Notes: generated by a model from the letters alone, not told the origin. A stretch of 64,000 bases of DNA from a virus (IMGVR_UViG_3300006467_000282:18032-82031), one strand, 5' to 3'. Numbered from the stretch's first letter, positions 24,035 through 57,092 are shown. A program made the numbers and translations.

Positions 24035-24640
24035 ATGGTAGATGATATTTTTGCAGACATCGAGGAAGCAGCAGATAAAGATAAAGAGGACAAAACTATT
24101 GACCTTGGTCCAATATCTCGTCTCGTTGATCAGCAAGCAATGCTCGAAAGAACAGCTTTAGAAACACATGTACAAAATCTATACTCATTTATTAAACTAA
24201 ATAATATGTCAATAGAAACTATTGAAGAAGCAATGAAGCTACGGGCTAAAGATCTATTTAAGGTTCGTCAGGTTCAGATTCCTGAAATGATGAAAGAATT
24301 TGGTTTAAATGCTATTGAAAGCACATCTGGAACTGCTATTAAAATAATGGACGGGTTATCCGTTACTATTAAAGATGCAGACAAATTGCATGCTTTCCTC
24401 CGAAAAAATGAAGCAGGGGATTTAATCAAAAATAAGATAACTATCGAAGTTGAAAATGAAGAAAAAAGAAAGGAGGTGGTTAAACTATTAGAAAGTAAAG
24501 AATTAAATTATGAAGTGAAGGAAGCGGTTCATAATGCAACTCTTAAAAAACACGTAAAAGATCTACGTAAAGATGGAAAAGATTTGCCGAATGAATCAGT
24601 AAAAATTTACGAGTACGAATACTCAAAAATCAAAAAGTAA
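24035..24640 (+). CDS. Conserved phage replication-module protein
   Basis: IPEMMKEFG...G..I.I...LS...AFLRKNEAGDLIK...VHNATLKK; typically paired with the next gene. Confidence 0.7.
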   Translation: MVDDIFADIEEAADKDKEDKTIDLGPISRLVDQQAMLERTALETHVQNLYSFIKLNNMSIETIEEAMKLRAKDLFKVRQVQIPEMMKEFGLNAIESTSGTAIKIMDGLSVTIKDADKLHAFLRKNEAGDLIKNKITIEVENEEKRKEVVKLLESKELNYEVKEAVHNATLKKHVKDLRKDGKDLPNESVKIYEYEYSKIKK

Positions 24641-24650
24641 AGGAAAAATT

Positions 24651-25529
24651 ATGGCTAAAAAATCAGAGACAACTACTGAAAACAAATCAGTTGTAAAAAA
24701 AGACGAAGCCGCATTGCCAATCTCGGTAGAAGAACTGGAAGCAATGTCAGGACAAGGGTTTGAGGGCGCAGACAAAGATTCTTATGCAATACCTTTTTTA
24801 AGAATCTTGCAAAGTACATCACCTCAAATTAATGAAGATGAACCAGCTTATATTGAAGGTGCTAAAGTTGGTATGTTCTTTAATACTATTACAGGTGAGT
24901 TATTTGGTAAAGAGTTAGATGTAATTCCTGCTCATTATGCAAGGGATTTCATTGAGTGGATGCCAAATCGTGGAGGATTTGTTACAACTCACGGCTCAGA
25001 TCCAGTTATTTTGGATCGTATTGTAAAAATTGATGATAACAATAATTCCATCCTTGATAATGATAATGTTATTCAGGATACACGCAACCATTATGTATTA
25101 CTTGCCGATCACCTTGAACAAGGTCCGATCATTCTTTCACTTACATCAACTGGTATCAAGCATTCCAAAAAGTGGATGACTCTAATGAATACCTTGATGA
25201 TTCCAAATAGTAAAAAACAAGCACCAATGTTTGCAGGAGTTTGGAAAATTGAAAGTGTACAGAACAAAAATGATGATGGTACCTGGTATCAAGTAGGTGA
25301 CAAATCTGCAACTTGCATTAAATTCAAAAATTGGGTTGATAAAGATCAACTCGAAGCAGCAACTTCCTTCAGAAAATTACTTGCAGCAGGGGAAGCAAAA
25401 GCGGATTGGGATTCAGCAGATGGCGAATCAAATAAATCCGGTGTAACTCAAACTGGATCTCCTTCAGCAGGGGGCTATGAAAAAGATGGTAAACAGTTTG
25501 ATAGCGAGGGGAATGAAATTCCCTTTTAA
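24651..25529 (+). CDS. Putative single-stranded DNA-binding protein
   Basis: GQGFEG...IPFLRILQSTSPQ; acidic C-terminus ending EIPF. Confidence 0.65.
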   Translation: MAKKSETTTENKSVVKKDEAALPISVEELEAMSGQGFEGADKDSYAIPFLRILQSTSPQINEDEPAYIEGAKVGMFFNTITGELFGKELDVIPAHYARDFIEWMPNRGGFVTTHGSDPVILDRIVKIDDNNNSILDNDNVIQDTRNHYVLLADHLEQGPIILSLTSTGIKHSKKWMTLMNTLMIPNSKKQAPMFAGVWKIESVQNKNDDGTWYQVGDKSATCIKFKNWVDKDQLEAATSFRKLLAAGEAKADWDSADGESNKSGVTQTGSPSAGGYEKDGKQFDSEGNEIPF

Positions 25530-28039: not shown

Positions 28040-28549
28040 ATGGAACACGCATTTTTAGTAGAAATAAATACAATGAATTATCGGAAATGGGATTCTAATA
28101 AAAATGAAATTCATGGACGATTTGTAATAATGGAAAGTCCGACACAGCTAAGCGATTATTTTCCGCAAGAAAAATTAGTTCAGCTAAGAACAAATATTCG
28201 TGGTAAAGAAAGCAAGTCAGATATCAGTAAATCAGCTAAAAAGTTAGCAAAAGAATGTTATAATGCAATCATAAAAATTAAACCACAAGTTCAATCTACA
28301 GTTAACCCTAAAGTTAACTCCACAGAAAAGAAAGTAACTAAATCTGGCCGCTTAAGAGAGTATTTTCTAATGAATGAAAGCGGTTCTGTATCGGATTTAG
28401 TTGCTTTTACAGGTTTTGATGAGAAAAATCTCAGAACAGCAGTTAGTATTTTAGCAAATCCTGGTAGAACAAAATATCCAATAGTTATTCAGTATGATTC
28501 CGACAATAAAATATATAAATTAGAAAAGGAGGATGAATGCCAAGCATAA
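28040..28549 (+). CDS. Hypothetical protein with a possible C-terminal winged helix
   Basis: GAGG RBS; SVSDLVAFTGFDEKNLRTAVSIL. Confidence 0.65.
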   Translation: MEHAFLVEINTMNYRKWDSNKNEIHGRFVIMESPTQLSDYFPQEKLVQLRTNIRGKESKSDISKSAKKLAKECYNAIIKIKPQVQSTVNPKVNSTEKKVTKSGRLREYFLMNESGSVSDLVAFTGFDEKNLRTAVSILANPGRTKYPIVIQYDSDNKIYKLEKEDECQA

Positions 28550-29028
28550 TATTTGAAGGACCAGATGGAGCTGGTAAAAGTTATATTGCAAGTTATATAA
28601 GTACAGTATCTAAAATTCCAATTTATCATGCTGGAGGACCACCAAAAACTCCGGAAGAAATAGTGGAACGTGCTAATAAAATGGTGAAAATGGAAAACAA
28701 GATATTTGATAGATTTCCTATAATTTCTGAACAAATATATGGAACTATCGTCAGGGATAATAATCCCTTTAACTTTGGAGATTTAAAAGATATTCCTTTT
28801 CCCGTTGTATATTGCAGACCTTTTCGAGAGACATTGCTTTCATCAGAAAAAATTGAAAAGGATTATAAAGCAGGTAAACATATGAAGAGTGTCCTGGAAA
28901 AATATGAACAAATTATCGACAAATATGACGAACTTATGAGTTCGTTACCACATTTAACCTTTAATAGGGATTTAGAATCATGTGCGGACTTTCTTACACG
29001 ATTGGAAAGAACAATATTGAGAAAATGA
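28537..29028 (+). CDS. Thymidylate-kinase-like dNMP kinase
   Basis: IIFEGPDGAGKS P-loop; DRF...SEQIYG. Confidence 0.85.
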   Translation: MPSIIFEGPDGAGKSYIASYISTVSKIPIYHAGGPPKTPEEIVERANKMVKMENKIFDRFPIISEQIYGTIVRDNNPFNFGDLKDIPFPVVYCRPFRETLLSSEKIEKDYKAGKHMKSVLEKYEQIIDKYDELMSSLPHLTFNRDLESCADFLTRLERTILRK

Positions 29029-30314
29029 ACGAAACCCTCAGGCATCGAGGAATACGTTCAAGTTATAAAAAATTAAATGATAATGATTTATATCTCGGCC
29101 ATACCCGACTTCCAATTCAGGGGGTTGATAAAAGATATGACCAACCATCTGTATATGGAAATTATACAGCAGCAATGGTTGGAGAATTGTTTAATTTCAG
29201 AGCAATGGACCCAAGTGCAAGGACTGATTTATCTGTTTTAATGGATCAATATTCAATGAACGGGTCAAATGTATTTATGAATTTTGATGGGTTTTGGTCA
29301 GTCATTATTTATAATGAATTTACGGGTTATACTGATATTTTCACAGATCATCTTGCAAAGAAACCCTTATACTATAGAACTGATCTGTGCGCATTTGCTT
29401 CAGAAATAAAAGCATTAACTGTATTAGGTGAAAATACATTTGATAAAACTTATTTCTCAGCTGTTGCTAAATGGGGATACTGCCCTGAAGATCGTACACC
29501 CTTTAGCGAAATCAAAAAGTTGCCCGGTGGAGCACATATCCAGTTGAATTCTATGGGTTATGTAATTAATTCTAAGTCCTATCTAAGTCTATTACCAAGT
29601 CCATCCGCAAGTTTAGAACTTATTATGGAAGATGCAGTTCGAAATCGTTTGGTATCTGATGTTCCAGTTTCCTTGCTCATGAGTGGTGGTTTGGATAGTA
29701 CAATTATATATTATCTTATGAGAAAACATACAGATTCGATGACTATTTTTCATATAGATAATGATGAAGCAGAATATTTGAATTATATTGACTTTCGCCC
29801 ACAAGACAAACTTATTTCCTTATCCATTGATGATACCTTATACGATACAGATGAAGTACTTTGGCATAATGATGGACCTGTTGATCTTGGATCGTTAATG
29901 CCTCAGTATCTTCTTGCAAAGGAAATTAAAAAACATGGATTTAACGTGTGCTTATCAGGTGATGGTGCTGATGAATTGTTCGGTGGATATAAAAGGATAA
30001 CTGAATATGATTCACAGTATTCTGATATATTTCATGAGCTTGCTTATTATCATTTACCAAGGCTGGATAAAATGATGATGGCTCATACAATTGAATTGCG
30101 TTCACCATTTCTTGCCCATTATGTAATTGAACACGCGCTGTCTATGAAGTATGAAGACAGGATTAATAAAATAGGATTAAAAGAAGCATTCAAACATATT
30201 GTTCCTGAAGAAATAGTTAATCGTAAGAAAAAACCATTAAGATATCGTACCGATTGGCGGCACGATTTGATTAAACAATATAAAGATCTAATAATCAAGC
30301 GAGGTTTAGTATGA
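28980..30314 (+). CDS. Asparagine-synthetase B-like amidotransferase (Ntn-GAT + PP-loop)
   Basis: MCG N-terminus, RHRG, GHTRL, MSGGLDS, SGDGADELFGGY, RLDKMMMAHTIELRSPFL. Confidence 0.9.
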   Translation: MCGLSYTIGKNNIEKMNETLRHRGIRSSYKKLNDNDLYLGHTRLPIQGVDKRYDQPSVYGNYTAAMVGELFNFRAMDPSARTDLSVLMDQYSMNGSNVFMNFDGFWSVIIYNEFTGYTDIFTDHLAKKPLYYRTDLCAFASEIKALTVLGENTFDKTYFSAVAKWGYCPEDRTPFSEIKKLPGGAHIQLNSMGYVINSKSYLSLLPSPSASLELIMEDAVRNRLVSDVPVSLLMSGGLDSTIIYYLMRKHTDSMTIFHIDNDEAEYLNYIDFRPQDKLISLSIDDTLYDTDEVLWHNDGPVDLGSLMPQYLLAKEIKKHGFNVCLSGDGADELFGGYKRITEYDSQYSDIFHELAYYHLPRLDKMMMAHTIELRSPFLAHYVIEHALSMKYEDRINKIGLKEAFKHIVPEEIVNRKKKPLRYRTDWRHDLIKQYKDLIIKRGLV

Positions 30315-30961
30315 ATGTAAATGATGTAGAAGAAATTGAAATTGAAGGTGATATGCTCGAAGCAATATTTGCGAAACAGAAATCATTGATGGATAAATAT
30401 CATGTGATTGAAGAAAAGCAGGGAGTTGGGTATGGAATATTGAAAGGTAATCCTTTTGATATCAATGAAATCCGCTCTCAATGTTTGGTAAAAGATTTTG
30501 CTTGGCGGTTTACAGAAGAAATTACTGAAGCTTCCGAGGGATTATTGAATGGGGAAACGGCGCATTTTCTAGAAGAACTTGCTGATGCTCTTCATTTCAT
30601 AACTGAACTTTGTATTATGGTTGAGATTACTCCGAAAGATCTTATTGGCGAATTCCTCGGTTATAATCCTGATCAGGATATGTTTTATAAGTTATTTTTT
30701 GTTTGTGGTATGCCTAGAAAAGCTCTTCCGGATACATACAAACCAATTTACCATATGGGTTTGGCAATGAATTGCTTGAAACAAAAACCATGGAAGCAAA
30801 CACACATTCTTACAGACCAAACTGCTTTTAAAAAACATATAATAGATTCCTACAGAGCTTTTTGTGAATATATGTCCCATTTTGAAGATGACAAAACTAT
30901 GGCCAGTTATTATTTCAAAAAGAACGTTGTAAATCAATTCCGTCAAGACACACAATACTAA
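30311..30961 (+). CDS. All-alpha dimeric dUTPase/dCTPase-like pyrophosphatase
   Basis: TEEITEA, EELADALHF, KPWK, Y.KKN.VN.FRQ...Y. Confidence 0.8.
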   Translation: MNVNDVEEIEIEGDMLEAIFAKQKSLMDKYHVIEEKQGVGYGILKGNPFDINEIRSQCLVKDFAWRFTEEITEASEGLLNGETAHFLEELADALHFITELCIMVEITPKDLIGEFLGYNPDQDMFYKLFFVCGMPRKALPDTYKPIYHMGLAMNCLKQKPWKQTHILTDQTAFKKHIIDSYRAFCEYMSHFEDDKTMASYYFKKNVVNQFRQDTQY

Positions 30962-30971
30962 TGGAGGTAAT

Positions 30972-31334
30972 ATGGGTTCTGTGATTGCAAGAATAAATGG
31001 TAATCGGTGTAAGTTCAATAATAACAAACATTTCGCTTTATATTTAATCGAAATATTGATTTACTCAGTTTCTCCCTTAGACGTTAAACTTAAAACCCTG
31101 GCTGAAATAATGGAAATGTCCGGACATAAAAGACGAATTAAATCCTGGGGTAAGGTTGATACTGATGAAAAATTTTCTAAATTATATTCAGAAACAATTC
31201 TTGCAATGGAAAATCTTTCCCCATTACCCGGTTTCAGTTCTTCAAAACCGAATGCTGTAAAAGCTGGATATAATAACCCGGAAAGAGGTCGGATATCGAC
31301 TGATTGGACAAAAGATAAGAATCTTAACAAATAA
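30972..31334 (+). CDS. Hypothetical protein inside the modification cluster
   Basis: GGAGG RBS. Confidence 0.7.
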   Translation: MGSVIARINGNRCKFNNNKHFALYLIEILIYSVSPLDVKLKTLAEIMEMSGHKRRIKSWGKVDTDEKFSKLYSETILAMENLSPLPGFSSSKPNAVKAGYNNPERGRISTDWTKDKNLNK

Positions 31335-31336
31335 AT

Positions 31337-31543
31337 ATGTTTGAAGAGTTTGATAAAATACAGCGTGAAAATGCAGAGGGTAACACTTGCCGTACATGTA
31401 AATATTGTGCTAAATCAAACTTACTTACTAATCATTACTATTATTATTGCCACGTTCTACGATCAAAAAGAACGCGTTCTAAAATGATGAGAGTTAAACT
31501 AAAAGACAGAGCATGCGTAAATTACAAGGAGAAGAAAAAATGA
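31337..31543 (+). CDS. Small Cys-rich protein
   Basis: CRTCKYC...C...AC. Confidence 0.55.
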   Translation: MFEEFDKIQRENAEGNTCRTCKYCAKSNLLTNHYYYYCHVLRSKRTRSKMMRVKLKDRACVNYKEKKK

Positions 31544-32391
31544 CATACGAAATTGAACACGTAAATCTAAAGAAACAAGAAATTCCAGATGATTATCATT
31601 GCGATTGTGACTTTTGCAAAGAATTCGGTGGAGTACTAATTCGTGAAGACGGAACAAAATACAACAAACTCGAACGCCGTAAATACTATGATACTGAAAA
31701 TGAAAAGACTCATATTGCAAAAACACCATTGCACGTTGCTCGCTGGGCAATTCAGGAATATAGCGATGAAGCTGAAAATGTTCTTGATCCAACAATGGGT
31801 GCAGGTACAACTGCAGTAGAAGCTCTTATGCAGAAGAGAAATGCATTCGGAGTTGAAATTCAGTTCATTGACGTTATTAAAGCTAATATTGCAAAATGTA
31901 ATCCATATGATATGCATGCAAAAATATATCATGGTGATGCTCGTGGTATTGCAGATTACTTCAGGGGTGAATCATTTGATTTGATTATTAATAATCCACC
32001 ATATTCTGGGGATGAAAATCAAACAAGTTTTGGCGGGGATAAACGCAACATGATGGAATACGATAAAACCCTGGCTAAGAATCTTGCTTTCATGAAAGAA
32101 AATGAGGCGTATTGGGGTACAATGTCAGATATCTATCGGGCTGCAACCAGGAGATTAAAAGTAGGTGGGCGTCTGGTAATTGGTGTTAAAGATATGGTGA
32201 AAAATAAAGCTCCATTCCTGATTCATAAACATTACGGCGAAGGTATAATGCGAATTGAAGATATGAGATTTGAAAAAATGGTTCTTCTTCCACATTATCC
32301 GACAACACTTTTCATGAATACATACAATAAACGCTTTCCAGATGTCAAAGTTCCACAATACCAAACAATACTTGTGTTTATAAAAGTTTAA
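31540..32391 (+). CDS. N6-adenine/N4-cytosine amino-methyltransferase family protein
   Basis: HIAKTP, VLDPTMGAGTT (motif I) before NNPPY (motif IV), LKVGGRL. Start set at 31540 behind AAGGAG. Confidence 0.85.
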   Translation: MTYEIEHVNLKKQEIPDDYHCDCDFCKEFGGVLIREDGTKYNKLERRKYYDTENEKTHIAKTPLHVARWAIQEYSDEAENVLDPTMGAGTTAVEALMQKRNAFGVEIQFIDVIKANIAKCNPYDMHAKIYHGDARGIADYFRGESFDLIINNPPYSGDENQTSFGGDKRNMMEYDKTLAKNLAFMKENEAYWGTMSDIYRAATRRLKVGGRLVIGVKDMVKNKAPFLIHKHYGEGIMRIEDMRFEKMVLLPHYPTTLFMNTYNKRFPDVKVPQYQTILVFIKV

Positions 32392-32398
32392 ATAGATA

Positions 32399-32427
32399 TT
32401 TACAAAATAATGTTTTTATAATATAAT
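32399..32427 (+). promoter_or_regulatory. Promoter TTTACA-N17-TATAAT
   Basis: Directly upstream of the TS homolog. Confidence 0.75.
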
Positions 32428-32454
32428 GTATCATTATTAATTAACGGAGGTACA

Positions 32455-33168
32455 ATGAGAATATTTACAAATCCAGTAGAAATGGTTAAAGAAGTTGAAC
32501 GAGATTTATTTGAAATGGGAACTCGTTATCAGTCATCAACAGTGCAGGATCAAGACGTGGCAGATGATCCTGATTTCCAAACAATGGAATTATGTGGATA
32601 TGCTTATATGTTGACTGAATTTGATTCAAACAATATGTTTGATATGCTTGATCATTCCGGGAAAATTAACGCAGAATGGTTGAACTACGAAGACCAGGAA
32701 CGTCGATATGGAACTACTGACAGACCACTAAATCCAGGATTAGCTTATACATTTAATGGTGAATTCTGGGAGAAATTTATTAGAAATGGCGTATTCTCTT
32801 ATTCATATGCTGAGCGTTTCCAAGCACAACTCCCCTATATTATTCGGGAATTAAAAGCTAAACCGAATACTCGCCAAGCAGTTATGACAATGTATGATCG
32901 TCACCAAGATATGATGCATTGGGGCGGACGAGATCGTGTTCCTTGCTCATTGACTTATCAGTTTATGTTGAGAGAAGATAAACTTGTTCTGATTTATAAC
33001 CAAAGATCTTGTGATTTTGTTAAGTTTTTCCCATCAGATGTTTGGTTAACAGTTAATCTGCTTAAACATGTTGCAAGAGAAATTGGTAAAGAACCAGGGC
33101 AGTTTATCCATATGCTTGGATCACTCCATGCATTTGCAGGTGATCTTAAAGGTAAAGAGATATTCTGA
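32455..33168 (+). CDS. dCMP hydroxymethylase-like thymidylate-synthase homolog
   Basis: ELKAKPNTRQA, VPCSLTYQF, QRSCDFVKFFPSD (Asp at the ThyA Asn177 / T4 gp42 Asp179 site), GSLHAF. Confidence 0.85.
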   Translation: MRIFTNPVEMVKEVERDLFEMGTRYQSSTVQDQDVADDPDFQTMELCGYAYMLTEFDSNNMFDMLDHSGKINAEWLNYEDQERRYGTTDRPLNPGLAYTFNGEFWEKFIRNGVFSYSYAERFQAQLPYIIRELKAKPNTRQAVMTMYDRHQDMMHWGGRDRVPCSLTYQFMLREDKLVLIYNQRSCDFVKFFPSDVWLTVNLLKHVAREIGKEPGQFIHMLGSLHAFAGDLKGKEIF

Positions 33169-33347
33169 TGAAAAAGAAAGATAGATACTGGGCAGTTTTT
33201 TCTCCAACTGGAGCAATGTTTACATCTACAATTAGAAAAAGAGAGGGAGATTGTAAACCTGCCTTTTTTAAAAACTATATTATGCGCCGGCATGAGTACG
33301 ATAGTTGTAGTACTCGGGAAGTACTTATCACTGAAATAAAAAAATAA
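33168..33347 (+). CDS. Hypothetical protein (59 aa)
   Basis: TGATG coupling; not in the track. Confidence 0.5.
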   Translation: MKKKDRYWAVFSPTGAMFTSTIRKREGDCKPAFFKNYIMRRHEYDSCSTREVLITEIKK

Positions 33348-34716: not shown

Positions 34717-35172
34717 ATGAAAAGACCATCGCAAGATAAATATTTCATGTCAATGGCGATGCTTGCTGCAACACGCTCAAATTGTTATCGTCGGCAAGTA
34801 GGTTGTGTAATTATTGATAAAGAAAATCGTGTACTTGCCACAGGCTACAATGGCGTTCCTTCAGGATATCCCCACTGCGAAATCGGGGAATGCCCAAGAG
34901 ATAAACCTGGGGCGGATTTACATTTATGTCTTGCAATACATGCAGAACAGAATGCTCTATTGCAGTGTTCAGATGTAGATAAGATTCATAAAGTATATGT
35001 AACTGATAGTCCGTGTTTGACTTGCACAGTAATGTTGATGAATACTAATTGCAAGCAAATCCTATACAACAAGCCATATCCTGGGCATGAAACATCAAAA
35101 GATGCGTGGAAGAAACTAAATCGAATCTGGAGACAATATGACTTTCGTTCAAGCACCATTATTCCCAACTAA
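34717..35172 (+). CDS. dCMP deaminase
   Basis: RSNCYRRQVGCVI, TGYNG, IHAEQNAL, SPCLTC. Confidence 0.92.
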   Translation: MKRPSQDKYFMSMAMLAATRSNCYRRQVGCVIIDKENRVLATGYNGVPSGYPHCEIGECPRDKPGADLHLCLAIHAEQNALLQCSDVDKIHKVYVTDSPCLTCTVMLMNTNCKQILYNKPYPGHETSKDAWKKLNRIWRQYDFRSSTIIPN

Positions 35173-37153
35173 AGCAAAATGGGAATTGCCCAAGGAATTA
35201 CCGAATCTATCTGGAGCTAAAGTAATCGGACTCGATACTGAGACACGCGATCCACAGCTTATAGAAAAAGGTCCGGGGGTAAGACGAGATGGATACCTGG
35301 TTGGAATATCAGTTGCAGTTCCAGAAGGTGATACCTGGTATTTGCCATTTGGCCATGCTGAAGGTAAACAATTTGAACGTGAAAATGTGTTACGTTGGGC
35401 AAAAGATAATCTATGCAATCCAAATCAACCAAAAGTCGGAGCAAATATATTATATGATTTAGATTATCTATATCATGCAGGAGTAAAAGTAGCAGGATCT
35501 TTCTTTGATATCCAAAATGCAGAACCGTTAATAGATGAAAATGCATATAGTTATTCTCTTGACACTTTAGCCAGGAAATATTTAGGTGAGAGCAAGCGGG
35601 AAGATATCTTAGATGATGTTTGTCGAGATTACGGATTAAAGGGTAAATCTCAAAAGCATTTATGGAGATTCGGTGCTGAATATACCGGAACATATGCTGA
35701 GGGTGATGCAATCCAAGCTCTGCGAATATTTGAAAAACAGAAACCTGTTATTGCAGCGCAGGGATTAGAAACAGTGTTTGATATGGAAACACGTCTTATA
35801 CCAATGCTTTTGCATATGAGACAACTCGGTGTACCAATTGATGTTGATCGATTAATGGGTTTACATGATCAAATGACAGGTGAGCTTGATCAGCACAAGC
35901 TCGATCTTGATAATATTGCAGGTAGTCATATTGATTACTGGGCAGCAGAGTCAATTGCTAAAGTATTTGATAAATCAGGGATTGATTATCCATTAACACC
36001 CAAATCTAAAAAGCCATCATTCACAAAAGATTGGCTTGATAATCATGGAAGTGATCTTTCCAGAAAGATATTGAAATGTAGAGAAGTCGACAAATTTGTA
36101 GGAACATTTCTTGAAGGTTCACTATTAGAAATGTTAGTTGGGGATCGGATTCATTGTCAATTTAATCAATTAAGGTCAGATGAATTTGGAACAGTAACAG
36201 GTAGATTCTCATCCTCAAATCCCAACTTACAATTTATTCCTACAAGAACAGCTTTAGGGAAACTTTGCCGAAAATTATTCATACCAGACGAAGGTTATGG
36301 GTGGTGTAAAGCAGATTATTCTCAAATCGAAATAAGAATATTAGCACATTATGCAATGGGGAACGGAGCAGATGACGTTCGTCAAACTTTTATAGATAAT
36401 CCCAGAGTCGATTATCACCAATGGTGTGCTGATATTGCAGGAGTTAGTCGTAGTGCTGCAAAGACTATTAACTTTGGAATTGTTTATGGAATGGGAGCTG
36501 AAAAGCTTGGCCGATCATTAGGAATTCCAACACATGAAGCTAAGAAATTCATCGACAACTACTTTATAGAATTACCTTTTGTAAAACATACTGTAGGTCA
36601 AGCAACACAAGCAGCAGAAAAACGTGGATATATTAAAACTATTCTTGGTCGCCGTAGAAGATATGATCTTTGGGAACCAAATGATTTTGATCTTGGTAAA
36701 ATAATAAAAGCAGACCGTAGTCCGAAAGTAGTTGAGAAAAGAATAGAAAAATATATCTCAGAAAATAAAGGTAACCTCGGTAGAAAAGTTCGTCGGGGAG
36801 TAAAACGAGCAGGATGCTATCGAGCATTTAATGCTGCTGATCAGGGATCTGCAGCTGATATTATGAAACTTGCTTTAGTTGATATTTGGGAAAGTGGAGT
36901 CTGCGATGTTATTAAACCATATATAACTGTACACGATGAATTAGATTTTGGTTATCCACTTTCAAAAATCGGTAAAGAGGCAATTTATGAAGTTAAACAT
37001 ATCATGGAAGATGTTTATGAACTGAAAGTTCCAATGATCTGCGATATTGAAACCGGCCCGAATTGGGGCAATGTAAATGAACAGTGGAATTTATGTAATA
37101 AATATACTGAGGCAGGTCATAAATTTGCAGTAAAACAAGCGGAGATAGGATAA
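35138..37153 (+). CDS. DNA polymerase family A with 3'-5' exonuclease domain
   Basis: GLDTET, TGRFSSSNPNLQ, ADYSQIEIR, RSAAKTINFG, VHDEL. Confidence 0.95.
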   Translation: MTFVQAPLFPTKAKWELPKELPNLSGAKVIGLDTETRDPQLIEKGPGVRRDGYLVGISVAVPEGDTWYLPFGHAEGKQFERENVLRWAKDNLCNPNQPKVGANILYDLDYLYHAGVKVAGSFFDIQNAEPLIDENAYSYSLDTLARKYLGESKREDILDDVCRDYGLKGKSQKHLWRFGAEYTGTYAEGDAIQALRIFEKQKPVIAAQGLETVFDMETRLIPMLLHMRQLGVPIDVDRLMGLHDQMTGELDQHKLDLDNIAGSHIDYWAAESIAKVFDKSGIDYPLTPKSKKPSFTKDWLDNHGSDLSRKILKCREVDKFVGTFLEGSLLEMLVGDRIHCQFNQLRSDEFGTVTGRFSSSNPNLQFIPTRTALGKLCRKLFIPDEGYGWCKADYSQIEIRILAHYAMGNGADDVRQTFIDNPRVDYHQWCADIAGVSRSAAKTINFGIVYGMGAEKLGRSLGIPTHEAKKFIDNYFIELPFVKHTVGQATQAAEKRGYIKTILGRRRRYDLWEPNDFDLGKIIKADRSPKVVEKRIEKYISENKGNLGRKVRRGVKRAGCYRAFNAADQGSAADIMKLALVDIWESGVCDVIKPYITVHDELDFGYPLSKIGKEAIYEVKHIMEDVYELKVPMICDIETGPNWGNVNEQWNLCNKYTEAGHKFAVKQAEIG

Positions 37154-56283: not shown

Positions 56284-56457
56284 TTGAAAGAGAATACGTT
56301 TGCAAAAATGAATAGAACAAGCCTTTTCGAGCATATAAATGCTCTTGAAAAGATAAATGAAGATAAACAGAATATGATTGATTCTCTCGAACGATCTAAT
56401 AAAATGAAGAATAATATGATCGATAGATTAATCATAAAAAAGAATGGAGGAAAGTAA
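56284..56457 (+). CDS. Hypothetical protein (57 aa, TTG start)
   Basis: GGAGG RBS; TAATG coupling to thyX; not in the track. Confidence 0.45.
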   Translation: MKENTFAKMNRTSLFEHINALEKINEDKQNMIDSLERSNKMKNNMIDRLIIKKNGGK

Positions 56458-57092
56458 TGAAAGTCATTGAACAAAGTTTTGAAATTATTAGTTTGCCGGA
56501 AAATCTGCTTCAGACATTGGAAAAAGCAGGTAGAACATGTTACAAATCAGAAGATAAAATTACTGAAGATTCTGCAGCAAAATTCGTTGAAATGTTAATC
56601 AAACGGGGTCATCATGCAATGATTGAATTTGGGGATATCATTGTTAAGTGTATTACTAATCGTGGGGTTACTCATGAAATTGTAAGACATCGATTAAGTT
56701 CTTATGCACAGGAATCAACCCGATATGTTAATTATAAGGGCGGTATGGAATTTATAAGACCTGTTTGGATGAACAAGCTTTTAACTGATCCCGAATATGA
56801 TTCTTCATTTAAGAATCTTCCCGATAGTGATATAATATGGTTAAAAGCTATGGCACAATCTGAAAATTCATATCTTAATTTATTAGATGAAGGTTGGCGT
56901 CCAGAACAAGCACGAGAAGTATTGCCAAACTCATTAAAGACAGAAATTGTATGGAAAGCAAATATCCGGGAATGGAGACATATCTTCACCCTGAGAACAT
57001 CCCCAAAAGCACATCCACAAATGGTTGCTTTAATGACTCCTCTGCTGAAATATTTGCAGTCGGAAATTCCAGTAGTATTTGATGATTTATAA
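56457..57092 (+). CDS. thyX: Flavin-dependent thymidylate synthase
   Basis: RGHHAMIEF, RGVTHEIVRHRLSSYAQESTRY, ARE.LP, NIREWRH. Confidence 0.93.
   Translation: MKVIEQSFEIISLPENLLQTLEKAGRTCYKSEDKITEDSAAKFVEMLIKRGHHAMIEFGDIIVKCITNRGVTHEIVRHRLSSYAQESTRYVNYKGGMEFIRPVWMNKLLTDPEYDSSFKNLPDSDIIWLKAMAQSENSYLNLLDEGWRPEQAREVLPNSLKTEIVWKANIREWRHIFTLRTSPKAHPQMVALMTPLLKYLQSEIPVVFDDL

Follow-up and report, generated by a model that had tools for sequence, protein, structure and literature searches.

The open reading frame (ORF) at positions 32455-33168 of a viral DNA stretch of 64,000 nucleotides (IMGVR_UViG_3300006467_000282:18032-82031, here called the window) encodes a homolog of thymidylate synthase (TS), and the locus raises the question which nucleotide this homolog modifies and which product it forms. 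The window was taken from a complete virus record of 82,031 bp, of which it covers bases 18032-82031; the record has direct terminal repeats. Among the genes of this phage are those for a Mu-like baseplate, a capsid of the HK97 type, a terminase, and a portal. An earlier note on this DNA had claimed that the homolog carries an aspartate at the position that selects between deoxyuridine monophosphate (dUMP) and deoxycytidine monophosphate (dCMP), that the enzyme acts on dCMP, and that its product cannot be read from the sequence. The analysis described here confirmed the aspartate and strengthened the case for the substrate, which, as judged from residues and gene context, is very probably dCMP and not dUMP. 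It narrowed, but did not settle, the identity of the product, for which 5-hydroxymethyl-dCMP has about an even chance. In addition, the homolog turned out to belong to a widespread clade that, judged from residues, C-terminus, and gene content, matches none of the three dCMP product signatures.

The 237-aa product of the ORF, which includes QRSCDFVKFFPSD, was matched by the Pfam family PF00303 (thymidylate synthase; E-value 2.2e-15, 57 bits, cut-off 24.3) and by PHROG 160 (E 9e-25), and its scores with the TS equivalog models of NCBIfam were far under the cut-offs, e.g., 54 versus 174. Searched with Pfam, the complete 82,031-bp genome contains no other PF00303 gene. An AlphaFold2 model of the protein had a predicted local distance difference test (pLDDT) score of 89.6, with the weakest part in the loop before the catalytic Cys (pLDDT 56), and it showed the TS alpha/beta fold (VIA-align Z scores of 19-23 over 205-217 residues, root-mean-square deviation 2.3-2.6). 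The top structural matches were 9IQC (Z 23.0, 217 residues) and 9IQU (Z 22.0), which are named as AfhB of phage HY126 in the Foldseek titles, followed by the CMP hydroxymethylase MilA (Z 21.1) and then by many ThyA entries (Z about 20). AfhB was also the top Foldseek match of the model (E 2e-15) and the top match among the PDB sequences (9iqu/9iqc, phmmer E 1.7e-13).

The selectivity position was located with four independent alignments, and all four agreed on Asp195. This residue was placed opposite Asn177 of E. coli ThyA by MAFFT, with ten reference enzymes, and also by hhalign, which compared the family profile with E. coli ThyA (probability 97%). BLASTP placed it opposite Asp179 of T4 gp42 (sequence from NC_000866), and phmmer against the PDB placed it opposite Asp229 of the L. 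casei N229D mutant 1njc, the top classical TS match. The structural support is at the level of the fold: with VIA-align, model residues 1-237 covered only residues 1-221 of E. coli ThyA. The motifs that the earlier note had given for E. coli ThyA and T4 gp42, i.e., RSCDVFLGLPFN, RSNDVVFGFRND, KTIEIIGA, and GSLHVY, match the fetched sequences. Conservation was analyzed with 120 retrieved homologs (51-100% identical). Asp195 was found in all of them, and it is therefore not a chance substitution. The fetched references were E. coli ThyA, RB69 Td, T4 gp42, the dUMP hydroxymethylases of SPO1, M6, ViI, and PhiW-14, RB69 gp48, and the Xp12 and PaMx74 enzymes. Position 177 (positions are given in E. 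coli numbering) split all aligned enzymes: Asn was present in ThyA, Td, and the four dUMP hydroxymethylases, and Asp was present in T4 gp42, RB69 gp48, and the enzymes of Xp12 and PaMx74.

Asp at position 177 has been reported to specify dCMP as the substrate (PMC13326640, NAR 2026). A metagenome-wide study, MetaGPA, identified positions 177 and 147 as the residues most linked to cytosine-modified virome contigs, and found that TS co-occurs with PRA-PH-type pyrophosphatase and dCMP/MafB19 deaminase domains (PMC8670742); residue rules are not given in Lee 2018. On modified contigs, 70% of the dCMP deaminases are located at most 3 kb from the TS gene, and PolA and pyrophosphatase are among the commonest co-located domains (bioRxiv 10.1101/2024.12.05.627091). 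The locus of the TS homolog shows the same TS-deaminase-PolA synteny as these published modified-cytosine contigs. Together with Asp177, the synteny thus bases the assignment of the substrate on a rule that is established and has already been applied to viromes. Homologs with 33-78% identity are encoded in 17 related IMG/VR loci, and genes for the pyrophosphatase, the kinase, the deaminase, and PolA are kept near the TS gene in most of them. The gene set mirrors that of T4: gp56, gp42, gp1, and Cd each have a functional counterpart, and a thymidylate synthase is encoded separately. Residues 177 and 147, the gene neighbours, the presence of ThyX, and the published synteny all support the claim that the enzyme acts on dCMP.

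Further active site residues were compared with those of the characterised enzymes (Table 1). Besides Asp195, four residues were invariant in the 120 homologs, namely Asp187 (Asp169 in E. coli), Trp105 (Trp80), Arg161 (Leu143 by position), and Phe227 (Tyr209). Cys164 (Cys146), the predicted nucleophile, was present in 119 homologs, and Asp160 in 117. The metagenome family member P0119 has Gly for the catalytic Cys, Asp for Ser165, His for Tyr118, and a different C-terminus; it may be a copy that has lost its activity or taken on another role. The phosphate-binding motif Arg166-Ser167 of E. coli is kept as R184-S185, and Ser165 and a Gln occupy the positions of His147 and Arg127, respectively. 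The enzymes of SPO1 and ViI also have Gln for Arg127, which is therefore no argument against a nucleotide substrate.

Table 1. Residues at four E. coli ThyA positions and number of residues after His207 in the TS homolog family and in characterised or related enzymes (MAFFT)
Enzyme	143	147	169	177	Residues after His207
E. coli ThyA	L	H	D	N	58
Xp12	N	P	D	D	64
T4 gp42	D	T	D	D	31
Four dUMP hydroxymethylases	D	N	D	N	>120
RB69 gp48 (5-hydroxy-dCMP synthase)	E	T	N	D	15
CPD4 gp75	R	S	D	D	11
TS homolog family of this phage	R	S	D	D	13

Hydroxymethylases have been reported to carry Asp or Glu in place of Leu143, and Asn169 to be diagnostic for 5-hydroxy-dCMP synthases, with nine natural variants that carry it all being active (PMC13326640). 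When the homolog was compared with these and other signatures, it fell between the classes. The canonical ThyA signature consists of Asn177, His147, and a C-terminal lid of about 45-55 residues with a conserved carboxylate at its end, and the homolog has Asp, Ser, and no lid. Of the Xp12-type signature, which combines Asp177 with the lid and a phage-encoded dihydrofolate reductase (DHFR), Asp177 alone is present. In place of the Asn169 of 5-hydroxy-dCMP synthases, the family has Asp187 throughout. At the position of Leu143, Arg161 was aligned and the acidic Asp160 lies beside it, in a loop in which the alignment is uncertain, as hhalign produced a gap and residues 151-160 of the model have a pLDDT of 56. 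As aligned, the clade breaks the acidic-143 rule and lies between the classes that are sorted by Asp177, an acidic residue 143, and Asn169.

The TS homolog ends about 43 residues short, without the TS C-terminal lid, and the tail beyond the His207 position is about 12-13 residues long versus 58 in E. coli ThyA. A 59-aa ORF that overlaps the stop codon (33168-33347) was considered as a split-off C-terminal lid and was rejected, because it has no homolog in related loci and the Pfam match stops short.

The clade is widespread, and metagenomes contain over 250 close homologs. Its nearest proteins from cultured phages are annotated 'thymidylate synthases' of the Clostridium perfringens phages CPD4, CP3, CPAS-15, and others, which are 38% identical over the full length. 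In a maximum-likelihood tree, the homolog family and CPD4 gp75 formed a clade of their own on a long stem (support 100/99). This clade lies apart from the dUMP hydroxymethylases, from gp48, from gp42, which is on a very long branch, and from the classical TS, with which the Xp12 and PaMx74 enzymes cluster; the deep nodes of the tree are unresolved. CPD4 gp75 shares with the homolog not only the clade, but also Arg143, Ser147, Asp169, Asp177, the short tail, and a PolA gene downstream, whereas it differs by Tyr at position 209 and Thr at the position of Asp160. The CPD4 genome yielded no match to a C5 methyltransferase, DHFR, or a second PF00303 protein. In the CPD4 record (L038, 49238-49729), the Pfam TS match continues beyond the annotated gp75 stop as far as profile position 244 and crosses two TAA codons on the way; this extension could be a remnant of a lost C-terminal region, or it could be due to chance.

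Asp177 was already known as a predictor of dCMP and has been used for virome mining. The separate cytosine-type TS clade extends to cultured C. perfringens phages. Phages that replace cytosine evade restriction enzymes and some CRISPR systems, and their enzymes are tools for epigenetic sequencing. For CPD4-like C. perfringens phages, the composition of the DNA bears on how they can be used and on which restriction or sequencing methods are suitable. The identity of the product would either extend the set of residue rules or reveal a new product.

The proposed route to 5-hydroxymethyl-dCMP would begin with the attack of Cys164 on C6 of the pyrimidine. Asp195 would read and protonate the N3/N4-amino face of cytosine, and Asp187 and Trp105 would hold the pterin of methylene-tetrahydrofolate, from which a one-carbon unit would be transferred onto C5. 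A DHFR gene (PF00186) was matched neither in this phage, nor in four relatives, nor in CPD4. Because there is no lid for hydride transfer and no DHFR, hydration of the exocyclic methylene intermediate to 5-hydroxymethyl-dCMP would be its most likely fate. The nucleoside triphosphate (NTP) pyrophosphatase would supply dCMP and clear dCTP, the thymidylate-kinase-like enzyme would phosphorylate the product, and PolA would insert the modified nucleotide into the phage DNA, ahead of any further tailoring. The dCMP deaminase and ThyX would represent the route to dTMP. ThyX yields no dihydrofolate, which fits a phage without a requirement for DHFR.

We infer that the enzyme depends on folate, with methylene-tetrahydrofolate as the donor, and that the modified nucleotide enters the phage DNA. 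In ThyA, the pterin is contacted by Asp169 and Trp80, and the presence of both residues in all 120 homologs, versus Asn and Val in the flavin enzyme RB69 gp48, argues for the use of folate. Hydroxymethylation is further suggested by analogy, i.e., by a lid-less folate site as in gp42 and by the T4-like logic of the pathway. An open, lid-less folate site has been linked to hydroxymethylation in the paper on MilA (PMC5175136).

T4 gp42 (1B5E) and the homolog have in common the TS fold, the catalytic Cys, the Arg-Ser phosphate motif, Asp169, Trp80, and Asp177, and in both His147 is replaced and the C-terminus is shortened. The T4 pathway, with the gp56 dCTPase, the gp1 deoxynucleoside monophosphate (dNMP) kinase, and the Cd deaminase, is paralleled by the pyrophosphatase, the kinase, the deaminase, and the separate dTMP synthase of this phage. 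However, the identity to gp42 is 24% over 124 residues (BLASTP), and the homolog family forms a separate clade in the tree, in which the deep nodes are unresolved. Three residues ahead of the Cys, the homolog has Arg where gp42 has Asp; it also has Phe for Tyr209 and Gln for Arg127, and its tail has 13 residues versus 31 in gp42. The pyrophosphatase has no detectable similarity to gp56, and glucosyltransferases such as those of the T4 system were not found.

Several observations weigh against 5-hydroxymethyl-dCMP as the product. Arg161 occupies the position at which every verified hydroxymethylase is acidic, with the reservation that Asp160 adjoins it and that the alignment and the model of the loop are weak. 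With Pfam, no transferase that would decorate a hydroxyl (glycosyl-, carbamoyl-, or other) was found in the 82-kb genome, in which many ORFs lack a Pfam family and divergent transferases could be missed; a methyl product would suit this result better. Five of seven tested TS homologs from TS-deaminase-PolA contigs gave 5-methyl-dCMP (bioRxiv 10.1101/2024.12.05.627091). The nearest solved structure is that of a flavin hydroxylase. Lastly, in most relatives a gene for a C5-methyltransferase-fold protein lies beside the TS gene, which is hard to square with a complete replacement of cytosine.

The latter protein is encoded directly upstream of the TS homolog in the relatives, where 15 ORFs over 17 loci encode it in full length (PF00145, E down to 8e-24). 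Its motifs are variants, namely GIGS, GHPxCG, DNLPK, QxRxR, and RERARIQGFPDDF, of which GHPxCG for PCQ and DNLPK for ENV are non-canonical. The protein is sometimes duplicated, and in some loci (L007:7413-10001, L015:7749-10001) it is fused to an N6/N4 amino-methyltransferase like that encoded in the window. The gene was found neither in the genome of this phage, nor in T4, RB69, Xp12, PaMx74, or CPD4. If C5 were substituted in all cytosines, a C5 methyltransferase would have no DNA substrate. It is possible that either the replacement of cytosine is incomplete in the relatives or the C5-fold protein performs a different chemistry.

Among the other products, 5-methyl-dCMP comes next, and we consider it unlikely. 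The homolog would be a dCMP methyltransferase of the Xp12 type, 5-methylcytosine would replace cytosine in the DNA, and the deaminase would turn a part of the methylated pool into thymidine nucleotides. Asp177, Asp169, an adjacent dCMP deaminase gene, and a PolA-type replication module are common to this phage and to Xp12 and PaMx74, and the deaminase is 32% identical to that of Xp12. As aligned, residue 143 is non-acidic, like that of Xp12 (Asn), the synteny is that of the MetaGPA set, in which 5/7 enzymes made 5-methyl-dCMP, and the genome contains no detected hydroxyl-decorating enzyme. However, the Xp12 and PaMx74 enzymes are larger (289-298 aa) and have kept the TS lid, with 64 residues past His207 in Xp12 versus 13 in the homolog, and they lie on the classical-TS side of the tree, apart from the clade described here. 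DHFR is encoded by all four reference phages with a dihydrofolate-producing enzyme, i.e., Xp12, PaMx74 (weak match), T4, and RB69. The DHFR gene adjoins the TS gene in Xp12 and PaMx74, whereas no match was found in this phage or in four relatives. Furthermore, dTMP would already be provided by ThyX.

A further, rather doubtful idea is that the clade represents a fourth functional class, characterised by Arg143, Asp169, Asp177, Phe209, and the missing lid. Its product would serve as a handle for an undescribed hypermodification of cytosine, built by the AsnB-type amidotransferase, the amino-methyltransferase, and, in most relatives, the C5-fold protein. There is a precedent in other phages, in which CmoX, a C5-methyltransferase homolog, and CmoY, an asparagine-synthetase homolog that amidates carboxymethyl-cytosine, hypermodify cytosine (PMC12783734). 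By analogy to CmoX/CmoY, a tailoring role of the AsnB-like gene is conceivable. The C5-fold protein could then use covalent C6 chemistry on a 5-substituted cytosine, which would be analogous to, but distinct from, that of CmoX/CmoY.

It is improbable that the homolog belongs with the flavin-dependent 5-hydroxy-dCMP synthases AfhB and RB69 gp48, in which case O2 and reduced flavin would take the place of folate. AfhB of phage HY126 is the top match in both sequence and structure, and AfhB and gp48 share with the homolog Asp177, the short C-terminus, Phe at the position of Tyr209, and the size of 234-238 aa. Yet Asn169 is found in all verified 5-hydroxy-dCMP synthases (PMC13326640), whereas the homolog family has Asp in 120/120 members. 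In addition, Trp80 is retained, which is Val in gp48, residue 143 is Arg and not Glu, and the tree gives no supported joining of the two groups. The arabinosylation genes of the AfhB and gp48 systems were not found either; a Pfam search across the whole genome, in which divergent enzymes could have escaped because many ORFs have no Pfam family, yielded no sugar-nucleotide, arabinosyltransferase, or DNA glycosyltransferase gene.

We also regard it as improbable that the enzyme acts in a bypass without wholesale replacement of cytosine, in which dCMP would be converted to 5-methyl- or 5-hydroxymethyl-dCMP and then deaminated to dTMP or 5-hydroxymethyl-dUMP. The TS gene and the deaminase gene are tightly conserved as a pair, Xp12 takes such a route to thymidylate, and the C5-methyltransferase-fold genes of most relatives imply that some C5 positions in their DNA stay unsubstituted. 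The deaminases of modified contigs yielded 5-hydroxymethyldeoxyuridine from 5-hydroxymethyldeoxycytidine nucleotides in vivo (bioRxiv 10.1101/2024.12.05.627091). In contrast, a bypass to dTMP would be redundant with ThyX in this phage, and the conservation of the dNMP kinase and the NTP pyrophosphatase is in line with base replacement. Enzymes that process 5-hydroxymethyldeoxyuridine (kinase, pyrophosphorylase) were not found by Pfam. The deaminase resembles an ordinary dCMP deaminase: its top PDB match is the dCMP deaminase 2hvv (E 3e-20), and its PDB matches are ordinary dCMP deaminases, which do not separate a 5-methylcytosine-specific from the canonical activity.

That the homolog is an ordinary thymidylate synthase which acts on dUMP and tolerates the Asp is highly improbable: annotation pipelines label the relatives 'thymidylate synthase', and the dCMP deaminase and the dUTPase-family enzyme would feed a normal TS too, but Asn177, His147, Arg127, and Tyr209 are all altered, the lid is missing, the NCBIfam TS models scored far under their cut-offs, and with its own ThyX the phage would not need another enzyme that methylates dUMP.

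The features of the locus, its neighbours, and the C5-methyltransferase-fold ORFs of the relatives are compiled in Table 2.

Table 2. Coordinates of the TS homolog gene, its key codons, and associated genes (window numbering, unless a related locus or the whole record is named)
Feature	Position	Strand	Evidence or remark
TS homolog, putative dCMP C5-modifying enzyme	32455..33168	+	237 aa; TS fold
Asp160-Arg161 codons; Arg161 is 3 residues before Cys164	32932..32937	+	MAFFT
Cys164 codon TGC, predicted catalytic nucleophile in VPC motif	32944..32946	+	MAFFT, hhalign
Asp187 codon GAT, pterin-binding position (E. coli Asp169)	33013..33015	+	MAFFT
Asp195 codon GAT, base selectivity (E. coli Asn177 / T4 gp42 Asp179)	33037..33039	+	Four alignments
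Promoter-like TTTACA-17-TATAAT	32399..32427	+	Pattern match; followed by GGAGG at 32446-32450
Thymidylate-kinase-like dNMP kinase, candidate kinase for modified dNMP	28537..29028	+	phrog_761 E 1e-14; 13/17 related loci
AsnB-type glutamine amidotransferase	28980..30314	+	Cys2, GATase and Asn_synthase domains; 8/17 related loci
All-alpha NTP pyrophosphatase (dimeric-dUTPase/MazG type)	30311..30961	+	PF08761 E 6.8e-8; phrog_12184 E 6.7e-22; 14/17 related loci
N6/N4 amino-methyltransferase	31513..32391		
dCMP deaminase, PolA directly after	34717..35172	+	PF00383 E 8e-22; MafB19-deam
Family A DNA polymerase (PolA) with 3'-5' exonuclease domain	35138..37153	+	PF00476 E 4.5e-68; PF01612
ThyX, flavin-dependent thymidylate synthase	56457..57092	+	PF02511 E 1.4e-44 (whole-record G000:74533-75105)
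C5-methyltransferase-fold ORFs of related loci	L002:4422-5624, L002:5615-6826, L003:8347-9696, L004:8418-9602, L005:8790-10001, L010:8889-10001, L013:8883-10001, others		

The NTP pyrophosphatase is a candidate dCTPase/dUTPase that would supply dCMP, and searches against T4 gp56 and against the PDB sequences gave no significant similarity. The AsnB-type gene overlaps its neighbours on either side, which encode the dNMP kinase and the NTP pyrophosphatase. The ThyX gene follows the TS homolog gene at a distance of 23 kb, so that one phage encodes ThyX plus a ThyA-fold enzyme; among the related full-length records, ThyX was found in two of five. A megablast search with 12 kb around the TS gene gave no match to GenBank phages.

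The earlier note had also attributed to the gene a consensus promoter of its own at 32399. The pattern is indeed present and is the top match on the plus strand within 10 kb. As evidence for a promoter it is weak, because such sites are no more frequent in the region than shuffles would lead one to expect (49 found versus 46.6 expected, in DNA with 34% G+C).

Two small proteins in the cluster have no family in Pfam or PHROG (28040-28549 and 30972-31334, both on the plus strand). Homologs of the former are encoded in most related loci with the AsnB-like gene, and homologs of the latter in three such loci only. Upstream of the nucleotide cluster, the region 24035-25529 of the window (plus strand) encodes homologs of gp33 and gp34 of the cyanophage Pam3 (DUF7307; Pam3_Gp34 E 1.6e-59).

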